A stretch of 64,000 bases of DNA from Octopus vulgaris (Eukaryota): contig OX597842.1 of assembly GCA_951406725.2 (NCBI GenBank), positions 28,086,001-28,150,000 on the forward strand, given 5' to 3'. Numbering within the stretch: position 1 is the first letter of the stretch; each line of letters starts with the position of its first letter. The position numbers and the translations under genes were made by a program. Positions 10,125 to 45,176 of this stretch are shown piece by piece. The notes beneath the pieces are model-generated. The model saw only the letters and a program-made list of their open reading frames with translations. It was not told the DNA's origin and searched no databases.

Positions 10125-10190
<66 letters not shown>
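9405..10190 (+). mobile_element. CR1-like LINE 3' fragment with (ATT)n tail
   Basis: ORF 9354..10073 (ERDLGI..VRPHLEF..WNPY..LESVQRRATK..TRGH..HFFTLRV), near-identical to the 3' end of 10451-12597. Confidence 0.9.
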
Positions 10191-10196
<6 letters not shown>

Positions 10197-10226
10197 TATG
10201 TATATATATGTATATATATATATCTA

Positions 10227-10305
<79 letters not shown>

Positions 10306-10450
10306 ATATATATATATATCGATATATATACATTCTATGCATGTATATATATATATATATATATATAAGTCTATAGGTATATGTATATGCAGCAGAAGTT
10401 GTACGTATATGTATATATGTATGTATATTTGTATATGTGTTTATATACAC

Positions 10451-12597
10451 TTGATTGGAACCTGTACCACACTGAACTACAGCACCCAAACTGGCGTGAT
10501 TTCTACAACTCTGGAGATGTGAATAGTATACTCCAGAGTATCCTGGACTCAATATGGGCAGCATGTGCAGCATCAGTGCCACGTAAACAGAAAAAGAAGA
10601 ACCGCCCCAAAAGGGCAATTTGGGAGACTTCAGCGGTCCGACTTGCCAGGAAGGAACGTCGGACTGCTGAATGGGAATACAAGTTGCATAAATCAGACAC
10701 CGACAGGAAAAAGCGGAATAAATCTTCCAACCATCTCAAGCAAGTGACATAAAAAGCAGTGCTTGAATTTGAACAGTGCATAGCAGCCAATCCTGACAGC
10801 AAGGTTTTCTGGAAATATGTGCATTGGAAGCAGAGACCTCACTCTCCAGTGGGCCCTCTTCGCAACCCTCACACAAACCAGATCACTGACGACCCCAAGG
10901 AATTCGCAGAACTCATTGCCGAGTGCTATGCAAATATATTCACTGTTGAAAGTCAAAATGTACCATCATCACCATCACTAACAGCAAATTCCAGAACAAT
11001 TATGGAATTTACACCTGCAGTGCTGCGACGTCGCCTTCAAAATAAGCCAAACTATGCCTCCCCTGGTCTTGATGGAGTTACATACCTGCTTCTCAAACGT
11101 GGCAGGTACTTCCTTTTACACCAGCTTTCTATTTTCTTCCAGTACTGTCTCAACAATGGTGCTACTCCGGAGCAGTGGAAAACCGCCAGTGTCATTCCTC
11201 TGTTCAAAAAGGGCGACCGCACATCACCTGTCAACTATCGCACAGTCAGTCTCACTAGCTGTATTGCAAAACTAATGAAATCGTGTATCAGAGAAACACT
11301 CAGGAACTTCTGGAGCTCTCACAGTCTCATCCGACCCTCACAATATGGATTTGTCCCTAACTCCAGCTGCAGTGATCAGCTTGTCGAGTTCCTTGAGGAC
11401 ATTACTCAGATCACTGACAGTGGCTCATGGGTGGATGTTGTCTACCTTGACTTTGCTAAGGCTTTCAACTCTCTGCCATACAAAAGGCTTATGGTAAAAC
11501 TCTCTGCAATGGGTGTGAGGGATGACCTTTTTAACTGGTTGAAATCCTTCATTCTCAGCCGAAAGGAGGTAGTCACAGTTCTAGGACAGCATTCTACACC
11601 ATATGAGATGTCATCGGGTGTACCACAGGGATCTGTCCTTGGTCCCCTCTTGTTTGTGGCATACATTAATGACATAGATGCCAATTTAAAGAATGCCACA
11701 GTATTGAAATATGCAGACGACATCAAGCTGTACCTTGAAATCAAGAGGACAGATCCTGATGTCTACAACTCTTTCCTGCAATCAGACCTAGACACAATGC
11801 AGCAATGGATCACAGACTGGCAACTGAAACTGGCTGTGGACAAGTGTATCACCATACATTTTGGGAGAAAAAACCCTGCGTCCACATACTCCCTCCACAA
11901 CACTGATATCAAGAAATCCTCTTGCGAGCGTGACCTAGGCATCACTGTCAGCAGTGATTTGCGTTGGACAAAGCATATCTCTAAAATTGTCAAGAAGGCC
12001 GAGGGTGTCTTGGCATCACTCAGCAAGACTTTTGTTAGCCGCTCTCCAGCCATCTATTTAAAACTGTATACAGCTATGGTACGACCACACTTGGATTTCG
12101 CATCATTAGTTTGGAACCCCTATCTTGCTCAGAACATTGACCTCCTGGAATCTGTCCAGAGACGTGCAACCAAACGCATACCCTCCATCAGACACCTACC
12201 ATATTCTGAGCGCCTTGTTTCCCTGGGCATGGATTCACTGAAGCTCCGGCGTCTGGCAACGGACTTGGTAAATACCCACAATGTTATCAACCACCTCACC
12301 AACAACAACACGGAACACCTTTTTGATCTCCATGTGTCTAACACACGTGGACATGCCTACAAAGTAAGAAAACAACACAGCTCCCATGACTTTCGGAAAC
12401 ATTTTTTCACGCTCAGAGTTGCTGAAACATGGAATAAACTGCCTGCGTCAGTTGTTGACTGCCATGACACTGCATCCTTTAATGCCCTCATGCTTTCCGA
12501 AATCCACCGAAACTACACCTGATTATATATACACTTTAGATGAGTTGTAGTGCGCCTGAGCACTGTACACAATTATTATTAATATTATTATTATTTT
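10451..12597 (+). mobile_element. 5'-truncated CR1-like LINE with largely intact RT ORF (10759..12522)
   Basis: PLFKKGDR..NYR..SLTS, QYGF, YLDFAKAF, SGVPQGSVLGPLLF, KYADD; in-frame stop at 10750-10752; short 3' UTR and (ATT)n tail. Confidence 0.93.
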
Positions 12598-12610
12598 ATT
12601 TATATATATA

Positions 12611-13270
12611 TACAACTGGCGATGTTTGTCAAATCAGATTTCGGACTCCATGTCCCACCCAAGTGGAGAGTTATAGTTTACAGAGACATATCTTGGTGAA
12701 CGAAGTTTATTCGAGATTTTTTGATGGAATTTTTCCAGAGACTTCTTGAACTTTATGGGGTCTGTTTCTGCTTTAATGTGTTTTGATATCATGTTAAAGA
12801 GAGTGGGGCCACTTGATGTGAAATAATTGTGCCAAATTGTTATTATGAGATGCAAGTGGGATTTATGTGGTTGGTCGATCGCATGGGGCAGAAGTCTTGG
12901 GTATATCTTAAAGGAGATGCCAGCATAATTCGGGAAATGCTGCTGGAATATTTTCAACATCATGCAGATGATACAGCGCTCATGACGACATCGAAGAGAA
13001 TAAAGCTTTAGCTTTTCTAGTCGACGACTCCAATGGTCAAGGACTGTCACTTTTGTAATTGACCTTTGAGATGCTTCAAGTTTCATGGGAATTTGTTCTG
13101 TGAGGGGAGACCACAGTGGACAACTGTATTGAAAGAGGGGTCAGGCAAAAGTAGAGAAGAGAAGGATAATGGTGAGGATATCAGGATATCTCTCGACTGG
13201 AAAGTTCTGAGAATCCAGGAACACATTCTGCTGACCATGTTAACTTTGTTGTGTATATGAGCGGCCCACC
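12611..13270 (-). mobile_element. Decayed CR1/L2-type LINE 3' fragment (subunit copy)
   Basis: ORF 12634..13086; paralog of 2201-2857. Confidence 0.8.
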
Positions 13271-13341
13271 TTCTATATATATATGTATATCTATCTGTCT
13301 GTCTCTGTGTCTATCTACGTATCTATCTATCTATCTAACTA

Positions 13342-13385
<44 letters not shown>

Positions 13386-13793
13386 CACACACATGCATAC
13401 ACATATATATAGACATAAATGTAAATATATGTACATACATCTATTTCATATATATATTGTTTGTATATATATATATTATGTATGTATATATATATATATA
13501 TATATTTAAAGATATACATGTAAATATATGTATACACACACACACACTCACATATATATATATATACATGTATATATGTATTATATACACTCAACCAAAA
13601 TATATGTCAGTGTCTGCCTTTTCTTTCATTTGTTAAAATCATTGTCCGATATTTTTTAGTTGTGTTGTTATATCTCTCTACGCTTTATTGCCCCCACCCT
13701 CTGCCTGTCTGTCTGCCTCTCTCTCCCTCCCCCTCTCAATCTTAGTCTCTCCCTCTCATTTTCATAGTTAAGTCACGTTGCCGCTTTACTTAG

Positions 13794-13858
13794 GAAGTTA
13801 AATATTTAGAGGTGAAACAGATTAGATTTCTATTCAATAATGAATATTGTCCAATTTC
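13794..13858 (+). other. Candidate 65-nt exon copy ([21 protein letters not shown])
   Basis: ttacttag / gtaag flanks, open frame. Confidence 0.35.
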
Positions 13859-13905
13859 GTAAGATTTGTTAAACCACGCCCTAGCTGGAGCATTTTAGAT
13901 CATAA

Positions 13906-14005
<100 letters not shown>

Positions 14006-14155
14006 GTATATATATATTTGTGTGTGTGTGTCTATATATAATTATTTCATATATATATATTGTGTATACATTCTATATATACATATATATATTGTGTGTA
14101 TATATATATTATGTATGTATATGTATATATATATATATCTATCTATATCTATATA

Positions 14156-14255
<100 letters not shown>

Positions 14256-14270
14256 TACATTCTATGCATG

Positions 14271-14302
<32 letters not shown>

Positions 14303-14324
14303 AGTCTATAGGTATATGTATAAG

Positions 14325-14843
14325 CAGCAGGAGTTGAACTCCAATTACAGATTGGCTGACGATAATAATATGCAGTTGTTTAATGCCGAAAAATTCCAAG
14401 CCCTGCGCCACCAGTATCAAAACCTAACTTAAAGGGTACACTGGTCCACAGGGAATTTTAGTCTCAGAGCCTAAGTCAGTGAGGGACCTGGGTATAGACA
14501 TGAGTGGTGATACCTCTTTCCAAGTGCTCAATACCAGGATGGTGACAAAGTGCAGACGACTGGCTGGATGGATCCTAAGAACATTCCGAACCAGAGAAAA
14601 GGAAACCATGATGGTCCACTGGCGAACATTCATCCTTAGCTACCTGAATTACTGCTCACAGCTATGGTCACCCACCAGTGTGAAATTAACAGCGGACCTT
14701 GAAGCAATCCAGAGAAGATTCACAAAGAAGATCGACTCTTTGCAACAGCTCAGCTACTGGGAAAGGTTGAAACACTTAAGACTCTACTCTCTGGAGAGAA
14801 GACAGAAGAAGTATGCAGTAATATATATCTGGAAGATCCTGGC
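14325..14843 (+). mobile_element. Old CR1/L2-type LINE RT C-terminal fragment
   Basis: ORF 14479..14871 RDLGI..GWILRTF..LNYCSQLWSP..LEAIQRRFTK..YWERLK.L.LYSLERR. Confidence 0.8.
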
Positions 14844-14844
14844 C

Positions 14845-15190
14845 AGAAGGCTGCACCAGGCTCGTGTCTGATCAGGTAGGGTTTCTACCGCTGGATGCCC
14901 TCCTAATATCTACCAGTCCAAGAGTGAAATGGGTGCTTTTACGTGCCAACAGCACGGAGGCCAGTCATGTGGTACTGCCAATAGCCAAACTCAAATGGTG
15001 TTTTTTATATGCCACCTGAACAGGAGCCAGTACAGCGGTACTGGCAACGTTCATGCTTGGATGGTGCTTTTAGTAATCAACTGGCGTTGTTGCCAGGCAG
15101 GCGGTGCTATCATCGGTCATCTCAACGAATTTGATTTCACTTGCCTCAACAGGTCCTCACAAGCGAAGTTTAGTGTCCAATGAGAGACAT
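14845..15190 (-). mobile_element. Diverged RTE 3' UTR fragment
   Basis: Similar to 60300-60760 (gaaggctgcaccagg..gctggatgccct..gatttcacttgcctcaacaggtc). Confidence 0.7.
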
Positions 15191-15251
15191 GTACGGATAT
15201 ATACATATACATACACACAGAAATATATATATATACATACATATGTATGTA

Positions 15252-15333
<82 letters not shown>

Positions 15334-16119
15334 CACACACAGTTTATATCCATTTAAAAGGAAAAAAGATGGGTCCATATATAACATCAAAAGGAGCAGC
15401 TGTTTTTCTCTGATGAAAATACACTCATGTCACATAAATGTAAAATTAATGTACAAATTTGTAATTAATTTATTGAAACAATTGTAAGCAGCGAAGATGA
15501 CCACTTTGTAAGCAATAAACAATTATCAACTTCCTTATCTCCATTTTCTTTTCTTTTTGAAATGGATATAAACTATATTCTTAATATATACCTATTGTTT
15601 TAAGGGTAGTTCATTGCCCAAAAATAATAGGTATTCAACCAGTGTTTCCTTAAATGCAACCATCCCTTCACAAGGTTAACATATCCCCTAATTATATACT
15701 TATATTCAATTTATATATATATGTATATATGAGTATATGCATGTATGTATAGACAGATAGATGAATTGATGGATAGGTGTGAGTGTATACATATTTCGGT
15801 CTTACCTATTCTTTCTAAATACATACACCCACATACATTCATACCTGCGTGTTTCTAAATTGACGCAAAAGGTTGACCTAAGATTTGAATAGGGATAAGA
15901 AATTTAATGACAATAAATTGAGATGTTTTAGAATTTCTTTAGAATTGTTAAAGAAAAGAAATAGTGACTCACCAGGTGAATGAGTGTTTCATTGTGTAAG
16001 AAATAGCAGGTACGCAGATAGCCATGTATATGTACATATATGGATATAAATACGTGTGTATGAATGTATGTGTACAGTTGTATTTGTATTTAAGTATGTT
16101 GATGTTTATGTTTGCACAA

Positions 16120-16165
<46 letters not shown>

Positions 16166-16634
16166 CTATGTTTGGATTTATACGTGTATGTATGATTGTT
16201 TGTAGTTATGTATATACGTAAACATGAATTGTTCGTGTATGAATATATGTATTTATGTATATATGGTGATGATGACGATGGCTATCCACTCATGAGTAAA
16301 AAAGGCCATCACTGACCATCTACCATGCGAAATGTCTGCAAGGACAGTTCTAAGTAGTATTGTGTTCATGGTCAGCTTTATTCGGATTCGCAGCTGTGGC
16401 CTTCATGCATGCCGCAGGGCCCTCCTAGTTGACCACGTATCGTAAATGACTCTTATCTAGCAATCGTACAATCGAGAATATTAAATCCAATAAGGCTTGG
16501 CTGACCCCTCACTGATACTTTGCACACTATTGACATGATCCAGAGACAAGCCAGGACAAGCTATCAAGTGCCAATGTGAGGGCACTATGATCCCATGCGC
16601 AAGGAAAACACTCCCCATAAATTGAGGTGTCTTT

Positions 16635-16666
<32 letters not shown>

Positions 16667-16805
16667 CACATACATGCACATATTATGGATGTATACACAC
16701 ATACTTCATCATTTTAAACACATATAGACACCTTCTTTGGGTGAAGCAGTGGGAAGTTATGGTGTTTTGAGTAGTATAGTTTGTATATATATATATATTA
16801 TATAT

Positions 16806-16878
<73 letters not shown>

Positions 16879-17058
16879 GATAATATATTTATATATGTAT
16901 GTATGTATTTGTATATATATATATATAAAATATATATATATGTATATATATATACATGTATGTGTGTATGTATATATATATATATATACATACATATATG
17001 TATATGTGTATATATGTATGTACATGTATATATGTTAGTATATGTGTATACGTGTGTG

Positions 17059-17139
<81 letters not shown>

Positions 17140-17143
<4 letters not shown>

Positions 17144-17798
17144 CTAGCGATGTTAGTCAAATCAGAATTCGGACACCATGTCCCGCCCAAATAGCCATTT
17201 ATAGTTTACAGAGACATATGTTGGTGAACGAAGTTTATTCGGGATTTTCCTAAGGAAATTTTCCAGAGACTTCTTGAACTTTATGGGGTCTGTTTCTGCT
17301 TTAATGTGTTTTGATATTATGTTAAAGAGAGTGGGGCCACTTGATGTGAAATAATTGTGCCAAATTGTTATTATGAGATGCAAGTGGGATTTATTTGGTT
17401 GGTCGATCGCATGGGGCAGAAGTCTTGGGTATATCTTAAAGGAGATGCCAGCATAATTCGGGAACTGCTGCTGGAATATTTTCAACATCATGCAGATGAT
17501 ACAGCGCTCGTGACGACATTGAAGAGAATAAAGCTTCAGCTTTTCTAGTCGACGACTCAAATGGTCAAGGACTGTCATTTTTGTAATTGACCTTTGGGGT
17601 GCTTCAAGTTTCATGGGAATTTGTTCTGTGAGGGTAGACCACAGTGGACAACTGTATTGAATAAGGGGTCAGGCAAAAGTGGAGAAGAGAAGGATAATGG
17701 TGAGGACATCAGGATATCTCTCGACTGGAAAGTTCTGAGAATCCAGGAACACATTCTGCTAACCATGTTAACTTTGCTGTGTATATGAGCCGCCCACC
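17140..17798 (-). mobile_element. Decayed CR1/L2-type LINE 3' fragment (subunit copy)
   Basis: ORF 17162..17614; paralog of 2201-2857. Confidence 0.8.
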
Positions 17799-17857
17799 TT
17801 CTATATATATGTAAATCTATCTGTCCATCTGTGTGTCAATCTACGTATCTATCTATG

Positions 17858-17889
<32 letters not shown>

Positions 17890-18253
17890 TATACTCACAT
17901 ATATACACCTATATATAGATATACATGTAAATATATGTATACACACACACAGACACACACATATATATATATATATATATAAATATACATGTATATATAT
18001 ATATATATAAATATACATGTACATGTATATAAGTATTATATACACTCATCCAAATGTATGCCTGTGTCTGCCTTTTCTTTAATTTGTTAAAATCATTGTC
18101 CGAATTTTTTTAGTTGTTGCGTTGTTATATCTCTCTATGCTTTATTGCACCCACCCTCTGACTGTCTGTCTGCCTCTCTCTCCCTCCCCGCCCTCTCACT
18201 CTTAGTCTCTCCCTCTCAATTTCATAGTTAAGTCAGGTTGCCGCTTTACTTAG

Positions 18254-18318
18254 GAAGTTAAATATTTAGAGGAGAAAAAGATTAGATTTCTATTCAATAA
18301 TGAATATGGTTCAATTTC
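18254..18318 (+). other. Candidate 65-nt exon copy ([21 protein letters not shown])
   Basis: ttacttag / gtaag flanks, open frame. Confidence 0.35.
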
Positions 18319-18418
18319 GTAAGATTTGTTCAACTACACCCTAGCTGGAGCATTTTAGATCATAAAACATATATATGCATATATATATACACACACACGT
18401 AAATATGAATGTATATGC

Positions 18419-18475
<57 letters not shown>

Positions 18476-18596
18476 CATACATGCACACATATTTGTGCGT
18501 ATATATATGTGTGTGTGTGTTTATATATAATTATTTCATATATATATTGAGTGTATATATATATATATTATGTACGTATATGTATATATATATATC

Positions 18597-18656
<60 letters not shown>

Positions 18657-18659
<3 letters not shown>

Positions 18660-19179
18660 TCATCATCATCATCGTTAAACGTCCGTTTTCCGCGCTAGCA
18701 TGGGTTGGACGGTTCAACCGGGTTTGGGGAGCCAGGGGCTGCCCCAGGCTCCAGTCTGATCTGGCAGTGTTTCTACAGCTGGATGCCCTTCCTAACGCCA
18801 ACCACTCCGCGAGTGTAGTGGGTGCTTTTTACGTGCCACCTGCACAGGTGCCAGAGGGGTCTGGCATCGGCCACGATCGGTTGGTGCTTTTTTATGTGCC
18901 ACTGGCACAGAAACCAGTCAAGTTGGTGCTGGCATCGGCCACGTTCGGATGGTGCTTTTTATGTGTCACCGGCACAGAAACCAGTCAAGTTGGTGCTGGC
19001 ATCGGCCACGTTCGGATGGTGCTTTTTATGTGTCACCGGCACAGGTATCACAACTACTGTTTTCATTGATATTGGTTCGATGTTCATGTACATGCACTTG
19101 ACTCAACAGGTCTCCTCAAGCACAGCGAGATGTTCCGGGATCCTACGATCGGTTGGTGCTTTTTATGTGCCACCGGCAC

Positions 19180-19180: not shown

Positions 19181-19235
<55 letters not shown>

Positions 19236-19301
19236 TAGATAGATAGATAGATAGATACATAGGTATATATAGATTCTATGCATATATATATATATATATA
19301 T

Positions 19302-19626
19302 GTAGGTCCCGAGTTGAGTCGGGGTTAACCACAGTACATAAGTTACTCAATACATAGCAGAGTAAATTAATTTATTTTATAGAAGGAGCTTCTACAGGAC
19401 TAGAACTGTTTCATTCAAAAGAAATCATCAGGAAGCTAGGTAACAAGAATAGTTTCGGCATTTATACATTTAGGCAGGTTTAAAGGGGTGGTGGTGGGGG
19501 ACTTTTTGGGGTAGGCATGGCGCAAACTATCATTCTTAGGGGAGTGGTCAAAGGAATTAGTGATAAAGTAGATAAAAGAATAAATAGAATAATAGGGTTT
19601 TAGGTAAATAAGGAGACTCTCACTTA
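19302..19626 (-). mobile_element. Probable Penelope-like terminal fragment carrying a hammerhead
   Basis: Non-microsatellite island containing a hammerhead motif; the Penelope assignment is inferred from that motif only. Confidence 0.5.
19387..19437 (-). ncRNA. Type I hammerhead ribozyme motif (family B)
   Basis: Minus strand AGCUUC-CUGAUGA-uUUC(UUUU)GAAu-GAAA-CAG(UUCUAGUC)CUG-UA-GAAGCU; 6-bp helix I. Confidence 0.8.
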
Positions 19627-19655
19627 TACACATATATACACATATATATAAACGT

Positions 19656-19690
<35 letters not shown>

Positions 19691-19736
19691 CACACACACA
19701 CATACATACATATATACATATATATATACAGATACA

Positions 19737-19770
<34 letters not shown>

Positions 19771-19830
19771 CACACACACACACATACAAACATATATACA
19801 TATATATATACACATACATATATATATATA

Positions 19831-19874
<44 letters not shown>

Positions 19875-20492
19875 ACATATATGCATATACACATATACAT
19901 ACACATACACACACATATCCATATACACATGTACATATGCACCCATTTACATACATCTACGTACACACCAATACCCATACTCATACATACACTCATATCC
20001 CTACACACTTATATCTAAAAATAAATATAAATATAAATACAAATACAAATATAAAGGGGGATATACACCCCCATACATACACGCTCATATATCTATACAT
20101 ACCCACACTTTGACCTCGACCCAACAGGCCAGCTCTCCCAAGGGAGCTAGCTTAGCCAGCCTAAAGACACCATTTATTGCTCCTTTCCCTTCCTTTCTAT
20201 CTTTCTTCACACTGATACGAACACAAACACTCACAGACGCACACACACACACACGCACACTCATTCACATACACAAACGCACGTGTTATATTCATACATA
20301 CATAAGTGTACCGACTTTCACATAAACGTACACATAACTATGTACACACAAAAAAACCCACATACGCACGCACATACCTACATATACATACACATATATA
20401 CTTACACCAGTCATATACAAACCTACATACACATACATACATATACACGTATATATACTCACACATATATACACATACACCTATATACACAC

Positions 20493-20531
<39 letters not shown>

Positions 20532-20993
20532 CACATACATATACATACACACACATCTACATACACATACATATACATCCGTACGCACACCCTATTACAT
20601 ACATACATCCACACAGAGGTATACAGGCATCTACACACATACACATACATACACATATATATACATATACCCCTGCGCGCCTACACGGACCCCTTGTACC
20701 TTGGATACCAATTCCCGGATTTTTGCACCTACGGATTACTTTTACCAGTCGTCTGGACCTACGGATTACCTGCTACCTTTTTTCCGGAGTACTGCTACTA
20801 TCGTGATTGAAAATCATTATTTAATCTGTCCGTTGACTCTCTTAACTCTTTCCTAATTTTTTTCTACTTTTTTCTACTTTGTTCTATTGTTTTCAAACTA
20901 TCTTCCCCTTTTGCTTTTTTTATCTTCCTTTTGTCTCTCCTTTTTTCTGTATCGCCACCACCCACATTTACCTGTTTGCCACCACTTCTCATC

Positions 20994-23837
20994 ATGCCTG
21001 ACTTGCACTCGTTCGTCCAACACCTTCAATCCCTCCTTAGCCGCTTTCTCGCGTTCTACCCCCCACAATGTTCCGCACCTGCTAAAAAACTTTCCCCGCT
21101 TGCTTTTTAAGAAAACTCGCCATTCCAGCCATCTCTCCTTTCTCAGCCGTTGCCTCCGCCATCATGTCACACCCCGCGGTTTCCTCTTGAAGTTCCACGC
21201 TACCCCCTATTCCTCCCCCTTCATCGAACCCACCCTCGCTCGTACCTCCCGCTCCCTCCTCCGCGCCACCATCCGCTCCACCCGCCCTCTCCTTGACTCC
21301 CTCGACCATCAACTTCCCCAGGCCTACCTCCTTCTCTCCGCCCTCTGCCCTCCACTCTTCACCCAACCTATCCTCCGCTTCATTCTTAATCTCAACCACC
21401 AACTCCACAACTTCCTCACACACAAAAAACAAAAAACTCCACCACCTCCTCAACCCCTCACCCCCTTCCCCATCCTCCCCCACTGCTCCCCCAAACCCCT
21501 CTTTCGTACTTACCCCTCCCCCTCCCACGGACCCACACCGTGACCTTCCTACGCCTAACCCATCTTCACCCAACCACCCCTACCCTCCCCTTCACACCCC
21601 TGCACCCCCTCTGCCTGACCCTAGTCCTCCCACCACCCCGCTTCCTCGCGCTGTTGTCACTATACCCCCAACCTCCCCCTCTCCGCCGCCGAGCGTTCTC
21701 TCCTCAGTAAGGGTCTCCGCTTCACGCCACTCACGCGCCACTGTGATGAGTTCGAGACTCGGGCTGACGTCAACCTGTTCCTGCGCCGCCTCAAACTTTG
21801 CGCATACTACCACGCGTCCCCGCAGCGTCACAACAATCAGGATTGCCTTGTGGAGCTGGGGCGTCGTCCATCCCACTGGACGCCGCCCCCAGGCCTATTC
21901 AGTAGCCTAGATTCGTTTGTACATGACTGCAACGCGTTGGTCCACCGGTTCAACTTTGAACCACGTCCCCGCCGAACCAACCTCACTCGAGCCGAATCCA
22001 TTGCCCTTCGCCACCTCCGCCGCCGTGATGACATCGTCATCAAGCCGGCGGACAAAGGCGGGGAAGTGGTAGTGTGGCGCGCGGACCTATACAGGGAGGA
22101 AGCGCTCAACCAGCTTCAAAATCCCCTCTTCTATCACCTCCTCCCCTCCGATCCCACCTCCTCCTACCAACAGCGAGTTTCCTCCACCATCCGCGACCTC
22201 ATCTTCTCTTCTGCTCTCCCCTCCACCGCCACCAACCTCATCGTCCGCACACCCCGCACCTCCACCATCTACTTCCTTCCCAAGATCCATAAACCCTCTA
22301 ATCCGGGCCGTCCCATAGTCTCTGCCTGTAATTGCCCCACTGAACTCATTTCCCTATACCTCGACCGCATCCTGTCCCCCCTAGTCGCAGCCCTCCCATC
22401 CCACATACACGATACTAACCACGCCCTCCGTCTCTCCAATTCCTTTTCCTTCCCTTCCAACCCCTCACACCTCCTCTTCACATTAGATGTAAAATCCCTG
22501 TACACTGTGATTCCCCACAATGACGGTCTCCTAGCCCTCCAACACTTCCTCGACCGTCGTCCCGACCCCACCCCTAGCACCCCCACCCTCCTCCGCTTGG
22601 CCGAGCTCGTCCTCACCCTCAACTGTTTCACGTTCGCCGGGGAAACGTACCAACAGGTGTCCGGGGTCGCGATGGGAACTAGGATGGGCCCCAATTTCGC
22701 CAATCTCTTTCTTGGCTACATTGAGGCCCAAGTATTCTCCCAGTTCTCCGGGCCGACCCCCGAACTATACGGTCGCTATATAGACGACTGCATAGGTGCC
22801 ACCTCTCTTTCCCGCGAACTCCTCTGCCAATTCATCTCTTTCCTTTCCAACTTTCACCCCTCCCTTCAATTCACATCCACCATCTCCAACACCTCTGTCA
22901 ACTTCCTCGACATCTCTCTCCGAATCGACCACCCCTCCAAGTCTCTCACCACCTCCGCCTTCTTTAAACCTACGGATTCCCACCTCTATCTCAACTTCTC
23001 CTCCTCCCACCCCTTCCACACCAAACGAGCTATCCCCTACTCCCAGTTCCTCCGCCTCCGACGTTTGTGCAGCCGCGACCAGGATTTCGAGACCCAATCT
23101 CAATACCTGGCCCGCCTGTTCAGACTCCGAGGTTACCCACCCATACTCATCTCTAATGCTCTCACCCGCGCCCGACGCATCGACCGCACCACCGCCCTGT
23201 CTCCTTCCCCCCATCCACCCCCCAACCGCACCCCTTCCCCCTCCTTTTCCACCCCTCTACCCTACCCCTTCGTCGCAAGATACTACGTGCCTTCCGTCGC
23301 CTCCAGCTTCATCCCACAACCCGTCCCATTTTCCCTAACCCACCCCTGTCCTCCTTCAAACGAGCCCGTAATCTACGGGACCTCCTGGTCCACAGCACCC
23401 TCTCTCCTTCCCCCTCAGCCCCACACGGATCATTCCCTTGCTCTAGATCCCGCTGCAACACTTGCCCCTTCATCACCAACACCACTGCTGTCACCGGCTC
23501 CAACCGGCGCACTGTACGTATTAGGCACTCTTTTACGTGCACCTCGTCTGGCCTCATTTACTGCATTAAATGCAACCTATGCGGGATGCTGTATGTAGGA
23601 CAGACGGGACGCCGGTTGTCCGATCGATTCACAGAACATTTGAGGGACGTTCGCCTACACTCCCTTTCTCCTATCGCACGCCACTTCCGCTCGGCCTGCC
23701 ATTCCCTAGATGACATCTCAGTGTTTGGTCTCGCCCCCAACAATGGCCGTCCTCTTTCTAGGCTCCACTTGGAGCAACGCTACATCTTCACCCTACAAAC
23801 CACTACCCCACACGGACTTAACACACCCTCCTCCTAG
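20994..23837 (+). pseudogene. Frameshifted Penelope-like RT / GIY-YIG endonuclease ORF
   Basis: IKPADKGG..VV, YFLPKIHK..PGRPIVS, LDVKSLYT, GVAMG..MGP.FANLFL, RYIDD, VNFLD, KPTD; C-terminal CSRSRCNTC and LIYCIKC..CGMLYVGQTGRRLSDRFTEH..PHGLN; several frameshifts. Confidence 0.92.
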
Positions 23838-26413
23838 TTTTTGTTTTCTTTTTTTTTCGGATAAACACCCCCTCACACACACACACCTACCTACATCCCA
23901 CACGCCTGTTCAAACACACACATACGGATACACATCTACGTACACGCATTCATACATCTAATCACACATACTTACAGACACACATGCACACACTAACATA
24001 CAAACCAACACGCACATACATACACACATACACACATACACACACACATACATACTTACACACACACACACAGACATACATATATACATACACACACACA
24101 TACATACGTACACACATACACACACACACACACATCGCACATACGTACTTCACACACCTATACTTACATACACACACACACATGCACACATACATGTACG
24201 CACACACACATACATACACACATACCCACACATGTACACCTTTACACGAATGCACACACACATACACCTATTCGCATCCAGGCAGCCCACCCCCTTTTTT
24301 CTGCTTTCTAGTTTTGGTTGATGGATCCTCGGTTCCCGTGGAGCGGGTTGTTCGGGGACCATCGCGCGCGCAACCCTTGGCGCGTGACGGTTGGTCGGCC
24401 CCATGGGCTTGCGTTGTATTGTTTGTGTGTTGTGTGTGCGAGCGCGCTTCGTGTGTGTGGGCGTGCTTCGGTTGTGTGCGTGCGTATGTATACATACATA
24501 CCCACACACACGCATGCATTCCTACCCACACACATACACGCACACCTACTCACACACACACTTACACACACACATACACACACATACCTGCGACATACAC
24601 ACATACACTCACACCCACACGCATACACACACACATACACACGCACACACACACACAGACATACACCCATACACTCACACCCACACGCATACACACACAC
24701 ATACACACGCACACACACACACACCCACATACATACATACATTAAACTTGTACACACACACACATACATACACACACACACACACACACATACATACACA
24801 CACATACCTACTTCAGACATACACACACACAGACATACACCCATACACTCACACTCACACGCATACACACACACACACATACACACGCACACACCTACAT
24901 ACATACATTACACTTGTACACACACACACTTACATTCATACACACACACACCTACAGAGCCATAGCTTCACTCATACATACACACATACCTACACACACA
25001 CACAAACACTCACAGACACACACCCATACATGCATACACCTATACACACACGCCTACACACATACATAAACACATACATACGCACACACACATATACTTA
25101 CACACATGCACACACACACACATACATACATACACCCACACACACATACTTACATACTCCTATACGCACATACATACACACAGACATACACACATACACA
25201 CTCACACATACATACACACACACATACTTACACACACACTCGCCTGCACGCGCACACACATGCATGACAAACACCCATACACTCACACTCACATACACAC
25301 ACACCAACATATACACGCACACGCACACACACACACGCACGCCTACACACCTACATACACACACATACACGGACACACCCATACATACTTACATACATAC
25401 ACCTATACACACACGCCTACACACCTACATACACACACATACACACACACACGTACGCACATACACACACATATACGCACATACATATATACCTACACAC
25501 ATGCACACACACACACACACACATACGCACACGCATGCATGCACGCGTGCACACCTACACGCATACATGCACACACACACACACACACGCACGTACACAT
25601 ACATACATACATACACACACACATACATACACCCATACACATACATGCATCCTACACACACAGACATACACACTCACACACTTCCACACGCGCACACACA
25701 TGCACATACACACACTTCCACACACACACACGTACATACATACACACTCATACACACACACACACACACACACACACGGACATACATCTATACACACACA
25801 TATACACACACACATACTTACATACATTCATCGGACACACTGACACTCAGACTTACACACAGACACACTCACACATCCACACACATACATACTCACACAC
25901 GCAATCGCAGGCGCGCGCACATGCTCGCTTGTGCGCGTTCGCGCACGCATACACGCACGCTTGCACAACGCTCATGTTTGACCGACCGGATCTCCTGTCC
26001 GTATCTGGGGCCGGCGCGTTGTCTTTGGGTTCTCCCACGCCTGTCGCCGCGGGACCACTCTTCCATCTTCCCCCTCCTCTCCCCCCTTCGCTGCAGTTCT
26101 TTTCCCTTAAACCCCCCTTTTGTACACACACGCACACACATACACACACCCACTCACACACACACATTTGCATATATATACACATTACACTTACACACAC
26201 TTCAAATTTACTTGCCACACACACAACAACGCACGCTGGACATATACACACACTACCACTCAACACACACACTGGCAAGTTACATACGCCCCCACCCTTT
26301 CCCGCCCCGCACGCACTAACATATACATATTTTCTGTTTTTTTTATCACGCCTCACACACACATACACACACGCACACGCACACACTCACACATACATAC
26401 ACACGCACACACA

Positions 26414-26850
26414 CATACCTCCCTGTTTCTGATCTGCCTTTCCGACTTGCTAGGGTACCCTCACACCACTCCTTTAATTCTACTACTGCCCGCTACAAGC
26501 CATTGTCCACCATACACACACATATACACACGCACACATACATACACACGCACACACACACACACACATACCTCCCTGCTTCTGATCTGCCTTTCCGACT
26601 TGCTAGGGTACCCTCACACCACACCTTTAATTCTACTACTGCCCGCTACAAGCCATTGTACACCATACACACACATATACACACGCACACATTCACACAT
26701 ACATACACACGCACACACACATACCTCCCTGCTTCTGATCTGCCTTTCCGACTTGCTAGGGTACCCTCACACCACTCCTTTAATTCTACTACTGCTTGCT
26801 ACTAGCCATTGTCCACCATACACACACACGCACACTCACACACACACACA
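26414..26850 (+). repeat. Three tandem ~150-bp repeats in the Penelope 3' region
   Basis: catacctccctg..gacttgctagggtaccctcacacc..gccattgt repeated 3 times with CA spacers; also at 43981-44415. Confidence 0.9.
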
Positions 26851-27029
26851 CCGTCATCTCGCAACACCTTTTTTACCATTCCCTCATTGATTCAGCTCTC
26901 CTGTTTTTAAGAAACATTTTCCTCCTTTTTTACTACTTCCGTCTTTTCAGTATGTGACCTCGTGAAGACGACCTGCAATTTTTTTTTCCTCTGTCCTCCC
27001 GTCTCGGGATCTTTCTTTCTTTCTCTTAT

Positions 27030-27064
27030 GTTTCCGACGAAGAGCTCCGCTCGAAACGTCATAC
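27030..27064 (+). ncRNA. Degenerate minimal hammerhead-like motif at Penelope 3' end
   Basis: GUUU-CCGACGA-A-GAGC(UCC)GCUC-GAAA-CG-UC-AUAC; U4>C, extra A, one helix I mismatch. Confidence 0.5.
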
Positions 27065-27546
27065 CCTCCTTCTTCCATTTTCCTGAGCGCCTAATAATAA
27101 TAATACTGTAATTGTTCCACGTGTTGTTGTTTTTTCTGTTTTCCCGTTTGGATTAACCTATATATATATATATATATACATATATACAGACGAACGCACA
27201 CAAAAACAGATATATACACATATATATACACCAACACACATACGCATACATAAATGTATACATATGTATATACATATGCATACACATACACACACACGCG
27301 CATCTATATATACATAAACACATACATGCATACAAACATATACATATATACATACATGCATACTCGAATAATAAATATAAGTATATATATACGTGCAATT
27401 ACCTATCATACAGAAGGATACATACATATAAACATATAAACAGACACATATATACCTATTTACACAAATGTATATATACATACATACATACATACATACA
27501 CATAAAACTACATACCTACATATACATAAACACACCGGCGTACATG

Positions 27547-27603
<57 letters not shown>

Positions 27604-27952
27604 ACATACATACACATACACATACATACACATACACACACATATACATACATATACATGTATGTAAATACATGCACACATACATATATACACACACAAA
27701 TACACATACACATATATATATATATATATATACATATATACACACATGTATATATAGATATATATATATATATATATATAATAAATATTAGGGAATGAAT
27801 CCAAAATTACAGGGAAAAATCAGATTTAGGGTTAAATCCAAATTTATAGTAAAATATTATATAATATAATTCGAGACAAAACCACTATTTTAAAACCAAA
27901 CAAGGAAAGACTTAATCAATACATAAAATTTTAATATAAATTAAATAAACCG

Positions 27953-27995
27953 CCACTACAATTGTTTCTTGTCTTGATCGACAATCTTCAGGTGG
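27953..27995 (-). ncRNA. Type I hammerhead ribozyme motif (family A2), inverted copy
   Basis: Reverse complement of 1920-1962. Confidence 0.85.
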
Positions 27996-28202
27996 ACTTC
28001 CAACAAGTCAGTTTCAAATTATGAAGTCATATACATAGCTACATACCCATACATCCATATATCTATACATATACATACACGTATATATACACAAGCACTT
28101 ACAAAAACACACGCACACACATCTATCTACATATATAAAAAAACCCAACAAGTCCATACATGTACACACATACACATACATACATGCATATACACATATA
28201 TA

Positions 28203-36057: not shown

Positions 36058-36696
<639 letters not shown>

Positions 36697-36716
36697 CATA
36701 GGTATATATAGATTCT

Positions 36717-36771
<55 letters not shown>

Positions 36772-36853
36772 GGTCCCGGGTTGAGTCGGGGTTAACCACA
36801 GTACATAAGGTACTCAATACATTGCAGAGTAAATTAATTTATTTTATAGAAGG

Positions 36854-36904
36854 AGCTTCTACAGGACTAGAACTGTTTCATTCAAAAGAAATCATCAGGA
36901 AGCT
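36854..36904 (-). ncRNA. Type I hammerhead ribozyme motif (family B)
   Basis: Identical to 19387-19437. Confidence 0.8.
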
Positions 36905-37122
36905 AGGTAACAAGAATAGTTTCGGCATTTATACATTTAGGCAGGTTTAAAGGGGTGGTGGTGGGGGACTTTTTGGGGTAGGCATGGCGCAAACTATCAT
37001 TCTTAGGGGAGTGGTCAAAGGAATTAGTGATAAAGTAGATAACAGAATAAATAGAATAATAGGGTTTTAGGTAAATAAGGAGACTCTCACTTATACACAT
37101 ATATACACATATATATAAACGT

Positions 37123-37173
<51 letters not shown>

Positions 37174-37224
37174 TACATACATATATACATATATATATAC
37201 ACATACATATATATATATATATGC

Positions 37225-37263
<39 letters not shown>

Positions 37264-37290
37264 TACATACATATATACATATATATATAT

Positions 37291-37349
<59 letters not shown>

Positions 37350-37964
37350 TGCATATACACATATACATACACATACACACACATATCCATATACACATGT
37401 ACATATGCACCCATTTACATACATCTACGTACACACCAATACCCATACTCATACATACACTCATATCCCTACACACTTATATCTAAAAATAAATATAAAT
37501 ATAAATACAAATACAAATATAAAGGGGGATATACACCCCCATACATACACGCTCATATATCTATACATACCCACACTTTGACCTCGACCCAACAGGCCAG
37601 CTCTCCCAAGGGAGCTAGCTTAGCCAGCCTAAAGACACCATTTATTTCTCCTTTCCCTTCCTTTCTATCTTTCTTCACACTGATACGAACACAAACACTC
37701 ACAGACGCACACACACACACACACACGCACACTCATTCACATACACAAACGCACGTGTTATATTCATACATACATAAGTGTACCGACTTTCACATAAACG
37801 TACACATAACTATGTACACACAAAAAAACCCACATACGCACGCACATACCTACATATACATACACATATATACTTACACCAGTCATATACAAACCTACAT
37901 ACACATACATACATATACACGTATATATACTCACACATATATACACATACACCTATATACACAC

Positions 37965-38005
<41 letters not shown>

Positions 38006-38467
38006 CACATACATGTACATACACACACATCTACATACACATACATATACATCCGTACGCACACCCTATTACATACATACATCCACACAGAGGTATACAG
38101 GCATCTACACACATACACATTTATACACATATATATACATATACCCCTGCGCGCCTACACGGACCCCTTGTACCTTGGATACCAATTCCCGGATTTTTGC
38201 ACCTACGGATTACTTTTACCAGTCGTCTGGACCTACGGATTACCTGCTACCTTTTTTCCGGAGTACTGCGACTATCGTGATTGAAAATCATTATTTAATC
38301 TGTCCGTTGACTCTCTTAACTCTTTCCTAATTTTTTTCTACTTTTTTCTACTTTGTTCTATTGTTTTCAAACTGTCTTCCCCTTTTGCTTTTTTTATCTT
38401 CCTTTTGTCTCTCCTTTTTTCTGTATCGCCACCACCCACATTTACCTGTTTGCCACCACTTCTCATC

Positions 38468-41316
38468 ATGCCTGACTTGCACTCGTTCGTCCAATACCTT
38501 CAATCCCTCCTTAGCCGCTTTCTCGCGTTCTACCCCCCACAATGTTCCGCACCTGCTAAAAAACTTTCCCGCTTGCTTTTTAAGAAAACTCGCCATTCCA
38601 GCCATCTCTCCTTTCTCAGCCGTTGCCTCCGCCATCATGTCACACCCCGCGGTTTCCTCTTGAAGTTCCACGCTACCCCCTATTCCTCCGCCTTCATCGA
38701 ACCCACCCTCGCTCGTACCTCCCGCTCCCTCCTCCGCGCCACCATCCGCTCCACCCGCCCTCTCCTTGACTCCCTCGACCATCAACTTTCCCAGGCCTAC
38801 CTCCTTCTCTCCGCCCTCTGCCCTCCACTCTTCACCCAACCTATCCTCCGCTTCATTCTTAATCTCAACCACCAACTCCACAACTTCCTCACACACACAA
38901 AAAACAAAAAACTCCACCACCTCCTCAACCCCTCACCCCCTTCCCGATCCTCCCCCACTGCTCCCCCAAACCCCTCCTTCGTACCTACCCCCACCCCCTC
39001 CCACAGACCCACACTGTGACCTTCCTACGCCTAACCCATCTTCACCCAACCACCCCTACCCTCCCCTTCACACCCCTGCACCCCCTCTGCCTGACCCTAG
39101 TCCTCCCACCACCCTGCTTCCTCGCGCTGTTGTCACTATACCCCACAACCTCCCCCTCTCCGCCGCCGAGAGTTCTCTCCTCAGGAAGGGTCTCCGCTTC
39201 ACGCCACTCACGCGCCACTGTGATGAGTTCGAGACTCGGGCTGACGTCAACCTCTTCCTGCGCCGCCTCAAACTTTGCGCATACTACCACGCGTCCCCGT
39301 AGCGTCACAACAATCTGGATTGCCTTGTGGAGCTGGGGCGTCGTCCATCCCACTGGACGCCGCCCCCAGGCCTATTCAGTAGCCTAGATTCGTTTGTACA
39401 TGACTGCAACGCGTTGGTCCACCGGTTCAACTTTGAACCACGTCCCCGCCGAACCAACCTCACTCGGGCCGAATCCATTGCCCTTCGCCACCTCCGCCGC
39501 CGTGATGACATCGTCATCAAGCCGGCGGACAAGAGCGGGGCAGTGGTAGTGTGGCGCGCGGACCTATACAGGGAGGAAGCGCTCAATCAGCTTCAAAATC
39601 CCCTCTTCTATCACCTCCTCCCCTCCGATCCCACCTCCTCCTACCAACAGCGAGTTTCCTCCACCATCCGCGACCTCATCTTCTCCTCTGCTCTCCCCCC
39701 CACCGCCACCAACCTCATCGTCCGCAAACCCCGCACCTCCACCATCTACTTCCTTCCCAAGATCCATAAACCCTCTAATCCGGGCCGTCCCATAGTCTCT
39801 GCCTGTAATTGCCCCACTGAACTCATTTCCCTATACCTCGACCACATCCTGTCCCCCCTAGTCGCAGCCCGCCCATCCCACATACACGACACCAACCACG
39901 CCCTCCGTCTCTTCAATTCCTTTTCCTTCCCTTCCAGCCCCTCACACCTCCTCTTCACATTAGATGTAAAATCCCTGTACACTGTGATTCCCCACAATGA
40001 CGGTCTCCTAGCCCTCCAACACTTCCTCGACCGTCGTCCCGACCCCACCCCTAGCACCCCCACCCTCCTCCGCTTGGCCGAGCTCGTCCTCACCCTCAAC
40101 TGTTTCACGTTCGCCGGGGAAACGTACCAACAGGTGTCCGGGGTCGCGATGGGAACTAGGATGGGCCCCAATTTCGCCAATCTCTTTCTTGGCTACATTG
40201 AGGCCCAAGTATTCTCCCAGTTCTCCGGGCCGACCCCCGAACTATACGGTCGCTATATAGACGACTGCATAGGTGCCACCTCCCTTTCCCGCGAACTCCT
40301 CTGCCAATTCATCTCTTTCCTTTCCAACTTTAACCCCTCCCTTCAATTCACATCCACCATCTCCAACACCTCTGTCAACTTCCTCGACAGCTCTCTCCGA
40401 ATCGACCACCCCTCCAAGTCTCTCACCACCTCCGCCTTCTTTAAACCTACGGATTCCCACCTCTATCTCAACCTCTCCTCCTCCCACCCCTTCCACACAA
40501 AACGAGCCATCCCCTACTCCCAGTTCCTCCGCCTCCGACGTTTGTGCAGCCGCGACCAGGATTTCGAGACCCAATCTCAATACCTGGCCCGCCTATTCAG
40601 ACTCCGAGGTTACCCACCCATACTCATCTCTAATGCTCTCACCCGCGCCCGACGCATCGACCGCACCACCGCCCTGTCTCCTTCCCCCATCCAACCCCCA
40701 ACCGCACCCCTTCCCCCTCCTCTTCCACCCCTCTACCCTACCCCTTCGTCGCAAGATACTACGTGCCTTCCGTCGCCTCCAGCTTGATCCCACAACCCGC
40801 CCCATTTTCCCTAACCCACCCCTGTCCTCCTTCAAACGAGCCCGTAATCTACGGGACCTCCTGGTCCACAGCACCCTCTCTCCTTCCCCCTCAGCCCCAC
40901 ACGGATCATTCCCTTGCTCTAGATCCCGCTGCAACACTTGCCCCTTCATCACCAACACCACTGCTGTCACCGGCTCCAACCGGCGCACTGTACGTATTAG
41001 GCACTCTTTTACGTGCACCTCGTCTGGCCTCATTTACTGCATTAAATGCAACCTATGCGGGATGCTGTATGTAGGACAGACGGGACGCCGGTTGTCCGAT
41101 CGATTCACAGAACATTTGAGGGACGTTCGCCTACACTCCCTTTCTCCTATCGCACGCCACTTCCGCTGGGCCTACCATTCCCTAGATGACATCTCAGTGT
41201 TTGGTCTCGCCCCCCACAATGGCCGTCCTCTTTCTAGGCTCCACTTGGAGCAACGCTACAACTTCACCCTACAAACCACTACCCCACACGGACTTAACAC
41301 AGCCCCCTCCTCCTAG
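38468..41316 (+). pseudogene. Disrupted Penelope-like RT / GIY-YIG ORF
   Basis: ORF pieces 38405..39019, 38766..39302 (premature TAG), 39327..40787 (RT, RYIDD), 40273..41316 (GIY-YIG at end). Confidence 0.92.
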
Positions 41317-44300
41317 TTTTTGTTTTCTTTTTTTTTCGGATAAACCCCCCCCACACACACACACACCTACCTACATCCCACACGCCTGTTCAAACACACA
41401 CATACGGATACACATCTACAGACACGCATTCATACATCTAATCACACATACTTACAGACACACATGCACACACTAACATACAAACCAACACGCACATACA
41501 TACACACATACATACATACACACACACATACATACTTACACACACACACACAGACATACATACATACATACACACACACATACATACGTACACACATACA
41601 CACACACACACACATCGCACATACATACTTCACACACCTATACTTACATACACACACACACATGCACACATACATGTACGCACACACACATACATACACA
41701 CATACCCACACATGTACACCTTTACACGAATGCACACATACACCTATTCGCACCCAGGCAGCCCCCCCATTTTTTCTGCTTTCTAGTTTTGGTTGATGGA
41801 TCCTCGGTTCCCGTGGAGCGGGTTGTTCGGGGGGGCCCTCGCGCGCGCACGCCTTGGCGCGTGACGGTTGGTCGGCCCCATGGGCTTGCGTTGTATTGTT
41901 TGTGTGTTGTGTGTGCGAGCGCGCTCGTGTGTGTGGGCGTGCTTCGGTTGTGTGCGTGCGTATGTATACATACATACCCACACACACGCATGCATCCCTA
42001 CCCACACACATACACGCACACCTACTCACACACACACTTACACACACACATACACACACATACCTGCGCACACACACACATACATACACACACATACCTA
42101 ATTCAGACATACACACACACACACATACCTACTTCAGACATACACACACACAGACATACACCCATACACTCACACCCACACGCATACACACACACACACA
42201 CATACACACGCACACATACACACACCCACATACATACATTACACTTGTACACACACACACTTACATTCATACACACACACACCTCACACATACATACACA
42301 CACATACCTACTTCAGACATACACACACACAGACATACACCCATACACTCACACTCACACGCATACACACACACACATACACACGCACAGGCACACATAC
42401 ACACACACACACACCTACATACATACATTACACTTGTACACACACACACTTACATTCATACACACACACACCTACACAGCCATAGCTTCACTCATAGATT
42501 CACACATACCTACACACACACACAAACACTCACAGACACACACCCATACATGCATACACCTATACACACACGCCTACACACATACATAAACACATACATA
42601 AACACACACACACATACACATACATACGCACACACACATATACTTACACACATGCACACACACACACACATACATACGTACACCCACACACACATACTTA
42701 CATACTCCTATACGCACATACATACACACAGACATACACACTCACACATACATACACACACACATACTTACACACACACTCGCCTGCACGCGCACACACA
42801 TGCATGACAAACACCCATACACTCACACTCACATACACACACACCAACATATACACGCACACGCACACATACACGCACACACACGCCTACACACCTACAT
42901 ACACACACATGCATACACACACATACACGGACACACCCATACATACTTACATACATACACCTATACACACACGCCTACACACCTACATACACACACATGC
43001 ATACACACACACAAATGTACGCACATACACACACATATACGCACATACATATATACCTACACACATGCACACACACACACACACACACATACGCACACGC
43101 ATGCATGCACGCACACGTGCACACCTACACGCATGTACGCATACATGCACACACACACACACGCACGTACACATACATACATACACACACATACATACAC
43201 CCATACACATACATGCATCCTACACACACAGACATACACACTCACACACCTGCATGTACGCGCACACACATGCACATACACACACTTCCACACACACACA
43301 CACGTACATACATACACTCATACACACACACACACACACACACACGGACATACATCTATACACACACATATACACACACACATACTTACATACATTCATC
43401 GGACACACTGACACTCAGACTTACACACAGACACACTCACACATCCACACACATACATACTCACACACGCAATCGCAGGCGCGCGCACATGCTCGCTTGT
43501 GCGCGTTCGCGCACGCATACACGCACGCTTGCACCACGCTCATGTTTGACCGACTGGATCTCCTGTCCATATCTGGGGCCGGCGCGTTGTCTTTGGGTTC
43601 TCCCACGCCTGTCGCCGCGGGACCACTCTTCCATCTTCCCCCTCCCCCCCCTTCGCTGCAGTTCTTTTTCCCTTAAACCCCCCCTTTTGTACACACACGC
43701 ACACACATACACACACCCACTCACACACACACATTTGCATATATATACACATTACACTTACACACACTTCAAATTTACTTGCCACACACACAACTACGCA
43801 CGCTGGACATATACACACACTACCACTCAACACACACACTGGCACGTTACATACGCCCCCACCCTTTCCCGCCCCGCACGCACTAACATATACATATTTT
43901 CTGTTTTTTTTATCACGCCTCACACACACATACACACACGCACACGCACACACTCACACATACATACACACGCACACACACATACCTCCCTGTTTCTGAA
44001 CTGCCTTTCCGACTTGCTAGGGTACCCTCACACCACTCCTTTAATTCTACTACTGCCCGCTACAAGCCATTGTCCACCATACACACACATATACACACGC
44101 ACACATTCACACATACATACACACGCACACACACATACCTCCCTGCTTCTGATCTGCCTTTCCGACTTGCTAGGGTACCCTCACACCACTCCTTTAATTC
44201 TACTACTGCCCGCTACAAGCCATTGTACACCATACACACACATATACACACGCACACATTCACACATACATACACACGCACACACACATACCTCCCTGCT

Positions 44301-44717: not shown

Positions 44718-44769
<52 letters not shown>

Positions 44770-45131: not shown

Positions 45132-45176
<45 letters not shown>

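Follow-up and report, generated by a model that had tools for sequence, protein, structure and literature searches.

A predicted long-range imperfect stem in the 3' region of an octopus Penelope-like element, probably selected for RNA pairing

A 64,000-nucleotide stretch of the Octopus vulgaris genome (contig OX597842.1, positions 28,086,001 to 28,150,000; hereafter the window) carries a Penelope-like retrotransposon whose 3' region holds two complementary segments separated by a long CA repeat. In this study, we compared these segments, or arms, in the window and in related copies of the element. We found that the arms are complementary parts of the 3' region that would pair on the sense RNA, giving an imperfect stem of about 140 bp around the CA loop, and the record of substitutions makes it probable that this stem has been selected. 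A preliminary description of the same DNA had proposed either a selected RNA structure or a hairpin hyperedited by ADAR and written back into DNA in a single event; the first option is supported by substitutions that preserve pairing. The segments concerned are located in the window as follows:

24318..24495, + strand: arm 1 of the stem, G/U-rich and A-poor, with a TG-repeat-like inner half
24496..25884, + strand: CA-rich loop between the arms, about 1.4 kb, evolving at a rate near that of four-fold sites
25885..26067, + strand: arm 2 of the stem, with a CA-derived inner half that is the site of most inherited A>G changes
41793..41970, + strand: arm 1 of a duplicated copy, duplex computed
43453..43635, + strand: arm 2 of the duplicated copy, duplex computed

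In the window copy, the sense arms are predicted to form a duplex of -191.9 kcal/mol with 134 pairs, 26 of which are G.U. This is better than any of 200 dinucleotide shuffles (-128.5 +/- 6.8 kcal/mol, best -147.2) and corresponds to a z-score of -9.4, against -139.9 kcal/mol and a z-score of -5.5 for the opposite-strand duplex of the same arms. The antiparallel pairing reported in the preliminary description is therefore real, and its six blocks with given coordinates lie exactly where they had been placed. The stem starts earlier than had been described, at 24318, where its outer foot (TTGATGGA) pairs with TCCATC at 26062, and it extends over 24318/26067. Arm 1 is as poor in A as reported (9 A in 155 nt). 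The deviations from Watson-Crick pairing had been described as G.U on the sense strand, and this also held: with an alignment that scores both transitions alike, G.U outnumbered A.C by 27 to 12 in the window copy (p 0.024) and by 29 to 9 in the second one, and the excess was significant at p < 0.03 in nine of nine copies tested. The ratios were 32:9 and 34:9 in older copies and 18:5 and 19:6 among young copies. This bias is not accounted for by CpG decay. The second arm pair, previously noted at 41806-41960/43463-43624, is indeed present; however, it lies in a segmental duplication (19191-27996 / 36654-45578, 95.6% identical) and therefore adds no independent support. Measured in 11 copies, the longest helix without a break spans 13-17 bp, and runs of Watson-Crick pairs reach at most 5-10 bp. 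We also observed that the duplex of both inner halves is an alternating purine-pyrimidine sequence drifting from UG/CA to CG/CG. Such a drift of an alternating duplex would raise its propensity to adopt the Z-RNA form.

The case for selection comes mainly from the history of the substitutions. Changes inherited on branches of at least three copies retain or gain pairing in 46 of 60 cases, as compared with 98 of 232 private changes (p 2e-6; these counts exclude changes from one mismatch to another and the 17 that fall on two-copy branches). The commonest inherited change is U>C, with 22 events over 31 G.U sites against 3 over 29 U-A sites (p 1.6e-6) and a bias towards G.U sites in both the outer and the inner half of the stem. 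Along the trunk leading to the window lineage, A-U became G.U 11 times and G.U became G-C 21 times, against 5 changes from G-C to G.U and 3 from G.U to A-U. The percentage paired is 91%, against at most 63% in slid controls. Moreover, the 63 real changes on the path from locus L046 to locus L090 leave a duplex of -199.8 kcal/mol, whereas random placements matched for type of change give -160.5 +/- 9.1, with -189.9 as the best of 200. Fixing the A>G changes at their real sites still gives only -163.4. Changes other than A>G thus bear the pairing signal, and therefore ADAR alone is no explanation. Judged from the sequences, substitutions appear to preserve pairing beyond chance, as expected of a selected RNA helix, and the stem is likely maintained by selection among replicating copies. 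In the helices of rRNA and pre-mRNA, compensatory evolution proceeds through G.U intermediates, since G.U is tolerated and A.C is not. The Penelope stem shares this A-U > G.U > G-C route, and most of its G.U pairs would be evolutionary intermediates of the same flow. Unlike in the classical helix model, the flow is directional in one lineage and A>G exceeds the neutral rate, neither of which is predicted there.

Both arms were present in 94 copies drawn from 100 sources, namely 98 loci plus the two copies in the window. Duplex energy lies between -180 and -226 kcal/mol in the 55 copies folded, despite up to 15-25% divergence of the arms. The older copies form a ladder (L228, L221, L217, L212, L169, L210, L216, L211, L075, L058 and a hub), rooted by a sister family, which splits after the hub into the window group and the youngest group. 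Both arms were present in 16 of the 23 loci examined for the older part of this ladder, with 27-44 G.U among 124-160 pairs. The G.U count declines from 32-44 in old copies to 26 in the window copy and 17-20 in the youngest subfamily. The sister family has 86% nucleotide identity in the endonuclease, the same hammerhead motif and 3.4 kb of CA sequence, and the stem was absent from the three copies scanned of five fetched (best 150-nt duplexes of -38, -30 and -65, against -159 and -155 for the stem). Likewise, a family at about 62% amino acid identity has a 0.9-kb tail, and no stem was found in two scanned of its 14 copies. Since the stem is absent from the sampled sister families, it is most simply regarded as a lineage-specific gain that is dispensable for Penelope success.

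Given these data, an inverted duplication decaying neutrally through CpG loss and mutation bias seems extremely unlikely. Stemless relatives are abundant, and Penelope-like insertions often include inverted partial copies (PMC8557442; this and the other papers cited were available in part, and statements attributed to them are limited to those parts), which would fit such an origin. Neutral decay, however, does not account for a duplex energy near -200 kcal/mol across 15-25% divergence or for the great excess of G.U over A.C, and only 3 of the 12 traceable G.U pairs arose by C>U.

Several observations nevertheless weigh against selection for a complete stem. Two-sided changes affect 21 pairs and do not stand out from the 16 and 19 of controls slid by +/-2 columns, a comparison that is non-discriminating because of the TG/CA periodicity. 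Along two shorter paths, one from L046 to the window copy and one from L059 to L090, the real value was reached by the best random placement of 200. The arms evolve faster than their surroundings, diverging by 14-21% as compared with 7-11% for the loop or four-fold sites, and the consensus structure was derived from the same alignments on which changes were later counted. When the surrounding sequence is folded along with the arms, the complete rod is only one among several folds of nearly equal energy. All of the 14 copies examined need 1.7-20.4 kcal/mol more than their minimum to adopt it, since nearby CA repeats can pair with the TG half of arm 1. Accordingly, the minimum fold of the window copy retains 31 of 142 duplex pairs, mainly in the outer stem. 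Finally, the tail motif of the sister family has 9914 exact matches, against 1670 for the stem-bearing lineage.

Several loci show partial or altered arrangements. Arm 2 is missing from L223, L226 and L076, no full arm-2 match was found in L215, L219 and L227, and L074 and L080 have no arm 1. These one-arm losses are internal deletions bounded by CA tracts, and L223 and L226 differ in their end points. By eye, we recognised no copy that skips the whole stem and loop among the first chromosome-1 endonuclease and tail matches listed. Between L211 and L075/L219 the stem grew inward by tandem duplication of a TG-rich arm-1 segment, corresponding to about 24440-24480 in the window. Short local hairpins were seen by eye in the 3' region of stemless families (L144 at about +3040-3090 and L134 at about +640-670 after the open reading frame, or ORF). 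A more distant Penelope-like family (L143, 51% amino acid identity in the endonuclease) has a short 3' region and a hammerhead-like motif of its own.

On inherited branches, A>G is the one transition that is strongly raised in the stem. It affected 13 of 39 sites there and 22 of 641 in the loop, pre-arm, mid and tail regions, a 9.7-fold difference (p 3e-8), with 3 of the 13 stem events in doubtful columns and a CA loop that may under-report neutral A>G. The corresponding ratios are 1.4 for U>C, 1.1 for C>U and 0.9 for G>A. This comparison used 61 copies, most near-identical young ones having been pruned; on a larger tree, inherited A>G affected 11 of 38 stem sites. In agreement with these data, 10 of 38 stem sites changed as compared with 3 of 77 four-fold sites of the ORF (p 0.0008). 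The impression that arm 2 reads like ACAC converted to GCGC thus reflects a real, polarised trend. The excess is confined to the duplex and to inherited branches: the tip ratio is 1.2, and private changes show no significant excess. Of the 24 inherited A>G changes counted on 39 A along the long ladder, 13 are predicted to destabilise the stem, 10 to stabilise it and one to be neutral. Inherited A>G thus often comes with a slight loss of stability, and rough scaling gives about 2.4 destabilising changes expected. We discarded eight further apparent changes, in arm-1 columns 190-204, because the alignment is faulty around the tandem duplication. A 5' G neighbour preceded none of 11 events on one tree and, after removal of these columns, 3 of 24 on the long tree, with a background of 5 in 38. 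Purifying selection cannot raise a rate above neutral, and therefore the A>G excess needs hypermutation or positive selection.

One candidate for such hypermutation is a slow write-back, compatible with selection on pairing, in which ADAR edits the stem at a low rate, inosine is read as G by reverse transcriptase (RT), and the master lineage is depleted of A through many rounds while U>C repairs the wobble pairs. We calculate that the private and the inherited data would both be matched by a per-adenosine excess of about 0.1% in each round, sustained for a few hundred rounds. Besides the contrasts with other transitions and with four-fold sites and the number of destabilising changes, it is favoured by the 1.6-fold higher private A>G rate in the stem and by the exceptionally high level of hyper-editing in octopus described in PMC5625713, which also reports a heavily edited Penelope element in lizard. 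However, the private excess is not significant, the doubtful columns and the possible under-reporting by the loop apply here, and selection alone could give an effect of this kind, because edited A of octopus host genes is replaced by G about 8-fold more often through selection and with no RT step (PMC7703385). The excess in these edited coleoid genes is similar in size and also falls at editing targets; those are host coding sequences under selection, whereas the Penelope stem is a non-coding predicted duplex that passes through RNA, where write-back would be possible. Altogether, we consider it rather unlikely, yet worth serious consideration, that ADAR edits in the stem are written into the genome by RT at about 0.1% per adenosine per round. 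Such write-back would drive a one-way A-U > G.U > G-C ratchet along the subfamily ladder, and the two taken together are likewise possible but less than probable. The inherited excess may fit either low-level write-back by this route or selection to remove editable adenosines, and the odds that ADAR has any role in it are about even. Contigs assembled from four presumed RNA runs, covering arm 2 and 350 nt beyond, contain a single A>G place, and the contig concerned has 10 further differences; they say nothing either way on editing, because contigs drop rare variants.

The single-event version of editing fared worse. Private A>G changes affect 8 of 3855 A sites in the stem and 100 of 75576 elsewhere (ratio 1.57, p 0.25), the eight being in eight different copies with never more than one per copy. 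This count covers 123 of 126 copies, one group of three being too small, and clustered A>G is absent from all 123. Many of the copies were chosen by arm similarity, which is biased against edited ones; about 50 were obtained through the endonuclease and are free of this bias. In addition, 20 tail matches with no arm motifs hid no hyperedited copy: two belong to an older subfamily and 18 have no arm 2, these being mostly short and 5'-truncated. No hyperediting burst was seen in the sampled history, from the oldest node on. A burst near the origin of the lineage, acting on an initially perfect inverted repeat and producing most of the G.U pairs, is in our view very improbable. Both arms are A-poor, G.U content peaks in the oldest copies and drops with time, and 14 of the 26 G.U pairs of the window were already G.U at the oldest node, so their origin is unreadable. 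The others arose by A>G (7, two of them with multi-step histories that may be alignment artefacts), by C>U (3) and by transversion (2). Against such a burst, new G.U pairs still appear singly along the trunk, the neighbours of G in G.U pairs follow no clear pattern, base composition cannot separate an A>G from a C>U origin, and U>C, the leading inherited change, is impossible for ADAR acting on the sense strand. Long imperfect duplexes of inverted Alu repeats are edited by ADAR, and APOBEC G>A editing marks genomic copies of retroelements as bursts within single copies. Alu duplexes form between separate insertions, whereas the Penelope stem is built into the element; unlike the APOBEC marks, its changes include no single-copy bursts.

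A process at the DNA level might also produce a drift of this sort, be it GC-biased conversion, repair that turns G.T into G-C on a hairpin template, or selection of a CpG-rich promoter in the pseudo-long terminal repeat (pseudo-LTR), which is the likely promoter (PMC11167929). On the long tree, both weak-to-strong transitions, A>G and T>C, reach about 0.62 per site in the stem, and many changes create CpG. We regard this explanation as improbable, because the stem has no excess of private T>C (ratio 1.08), repair is unable to turn A-U into G.U, and nothing in it predicts G.U over A.C. It is equally doubtful that the stem serves in splice control, by bridging or hiding an AG that follows a pyrimidine tract behind arm 2 (at about 26098) or the GTATGT in inner arm 1. 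These motifs are visible in the window and in older subfamilies, and Penelope elements retain introns (PMC4209133); however, the youngest subfamily has a weakened acceptor, old subfamilies lack the donor-like motif, the contigs of the four runs contain no joint or loose end marking a spliced junction, and one contig, in this contig-level view, runs unspliced through arm 2 and the acceptor. As a further alternative, arm 1 could pair in tandem transcripts with arm 2 of the upstream copy, around the ORF. In L069, run X1 shows loose ends at 5972-5977, 6149 and 6368, oriented as from antisense RNA or strand invasion; we take them to resemble a template-switch library adapter.

Returning to the selected stem, its formation in vivo would follow from the predicted pairing and from the substitution record. 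It would loop out the 1.4-kb CA repeat and so compact a very long 3' region, and it may stabilise the full-length RNA, being too imperfect and too poor in A for efficient unwinding or dicing. U>C changes would be favoured because they harden the stem and prevent the CA repeats around it from pairing with arm 1 in its TG-rich half. A>G above the neutral rate with no gain in stability would, in this mechanism, most likely come from ADAR, either by rare write-back through the RT of the element or by selection removing editable A. A role in compacting or stabilising the 3' region is our best guess, a tentative one at less than even odds.

The stem belongs to an element of the following composition:

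20670..27157, + strand: Neptune-type Penelope-like retrotransposon, one unit with both ends located, no upstream pseudo-LTR, flanked by TA/CA microsatellite
20995..23837, + strand: ORF for RT and a GIY-YIG-type endonuclease joined by a C-x4-C-xx-C linker, broken into three frames in the window copy
26374..26828, + strand: three copies of a 153-bp unit, present as 1-3 units in close relatives
27030..27064, + strand: minimal type I hammerhead motif, read by eye and compared with the description in the available part of PMC4209133
38144..44721, + strand: second element copy within the segmental duplication, with a hammerhead core at 44598-44624

Both arms are inside the 3.3-kb CA-rich 3' region, and the hammerhead motif lies about 1 kb downstream of the stem. 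The RVT_1 match of the window ORF is weak. Locus L071 has an intact 1008-amino-acid frame with RT plus a GIY-YIG/CCHH endonuclease at the C terminus, and homologues at 41-56% identity bear PF00078 and PF01541. In four organisms taken as related species, 54-60% of the ORF words are present. The relatives L069 and L070 are head-to-tail tandems with a unit of about 6.17 kb, tandem or partial-tandem structures forming pseudo-LTRs were seen in L069-L073, and insertions lie in (TA)n and are 5'-truncated. By its single ORF, tandems and 5' truncation, the element is, on sequence grounds, an endonuclease-containing Penelope-like element. The Neptune-type label follows from the CX2-5CxxC linker between RT and endonuclease, which defines the Neptune and Nematis clades (PMC8557442) and would point to either. 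In the hammerhead motif, U4 is replaced by C, helix II is preceded by a bulged A, and there is a CG palindrome; the motif is kept in the sister and distant families. An Rfam search gave no hammerhead, only microsatellite-driven, microRNA-like matches below threshold.

Exact motif matches across the genome number 1670 for the tail, 751 for the end and 697 for the middle of arm 2, 319 for the head of arm 1 and 325 for the endonuclease. These counts trace a smooth gradient of 5' truncation that shows no step where the stem lies, and the passage from 751 to 697 across arm 2 gives no sign of RT arrest at the stem foot. The 5' truncation of copies, read on the ORF strand, means that sense RNA serves as template, as in one Penelope element studied in vitro, for which hammerhead cleavage is dispensable (PMC11167929). 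A retrozyme preprint (10.64898/2026.07.22.740005) had no bearing on the stem. Two independent short copies, L176 and L181, start at the same base in the hammerhead core, right after a TA repeat, and L183 starts a few bases before that point; the shared start is possibly a preferred RT stop.

As described in the available parts of PMC4209133 and PMC8557442, Neptune and Nematis elements have in common with the window element the RT, the CX2-5CxxC linker and a GIY-YIG domain with a CCHH motif, as well as head-to-tail tandems, 5' truncation and (TA)n insertion; the minimal hammerhead in their pseudo-LTR has a putative counterpart in the window element. What sets the window element apart from them is a 3' region of 3.3 kb, rich in CA and closed by a predicted long-range stem (about 140 bp). 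The available text of PMC8557442 nowhere uses the word 'hairpin', and a literature search, mostly of non-subscription papers and their main texts, returned no report of such a stem or of ADAR write-back in a Penelope lineage. The stem-bearing variant is thus apparently undescribed. Few cis-acting RNA structures are known in Penelope-like elements besides the hammerhead and the stem-loop at the RT start. Gained in one lineage and absent from its sister, the stem provides a natural comparison with and without it, and stem and loop offer a target and a control within one RNA. The dated subfamily ladder makes the inheritance of A-to-I edits through retrotransposition directly testable. If write-back is true, it would be heritable RNA editing acting as a mutational force on a transposon.

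Outside the stem, private T>C is about three times as frequent as A>G, and the sense strand of the element is scarce in G (about 9% at four-fold sites). Together, these two features suggest a strand-specific mutation bias. The window itself is a nest of segmental duplications (10000-16856, 12579-18977 and 19191-27996, with counterparts at 30-57 kb) that bear LINE-type RT/endonuclease fragments in addition to the Penelope-like element, and further matches to the duplicated segments lie at G000:C29 near 27.99 and 28.08 Mb.
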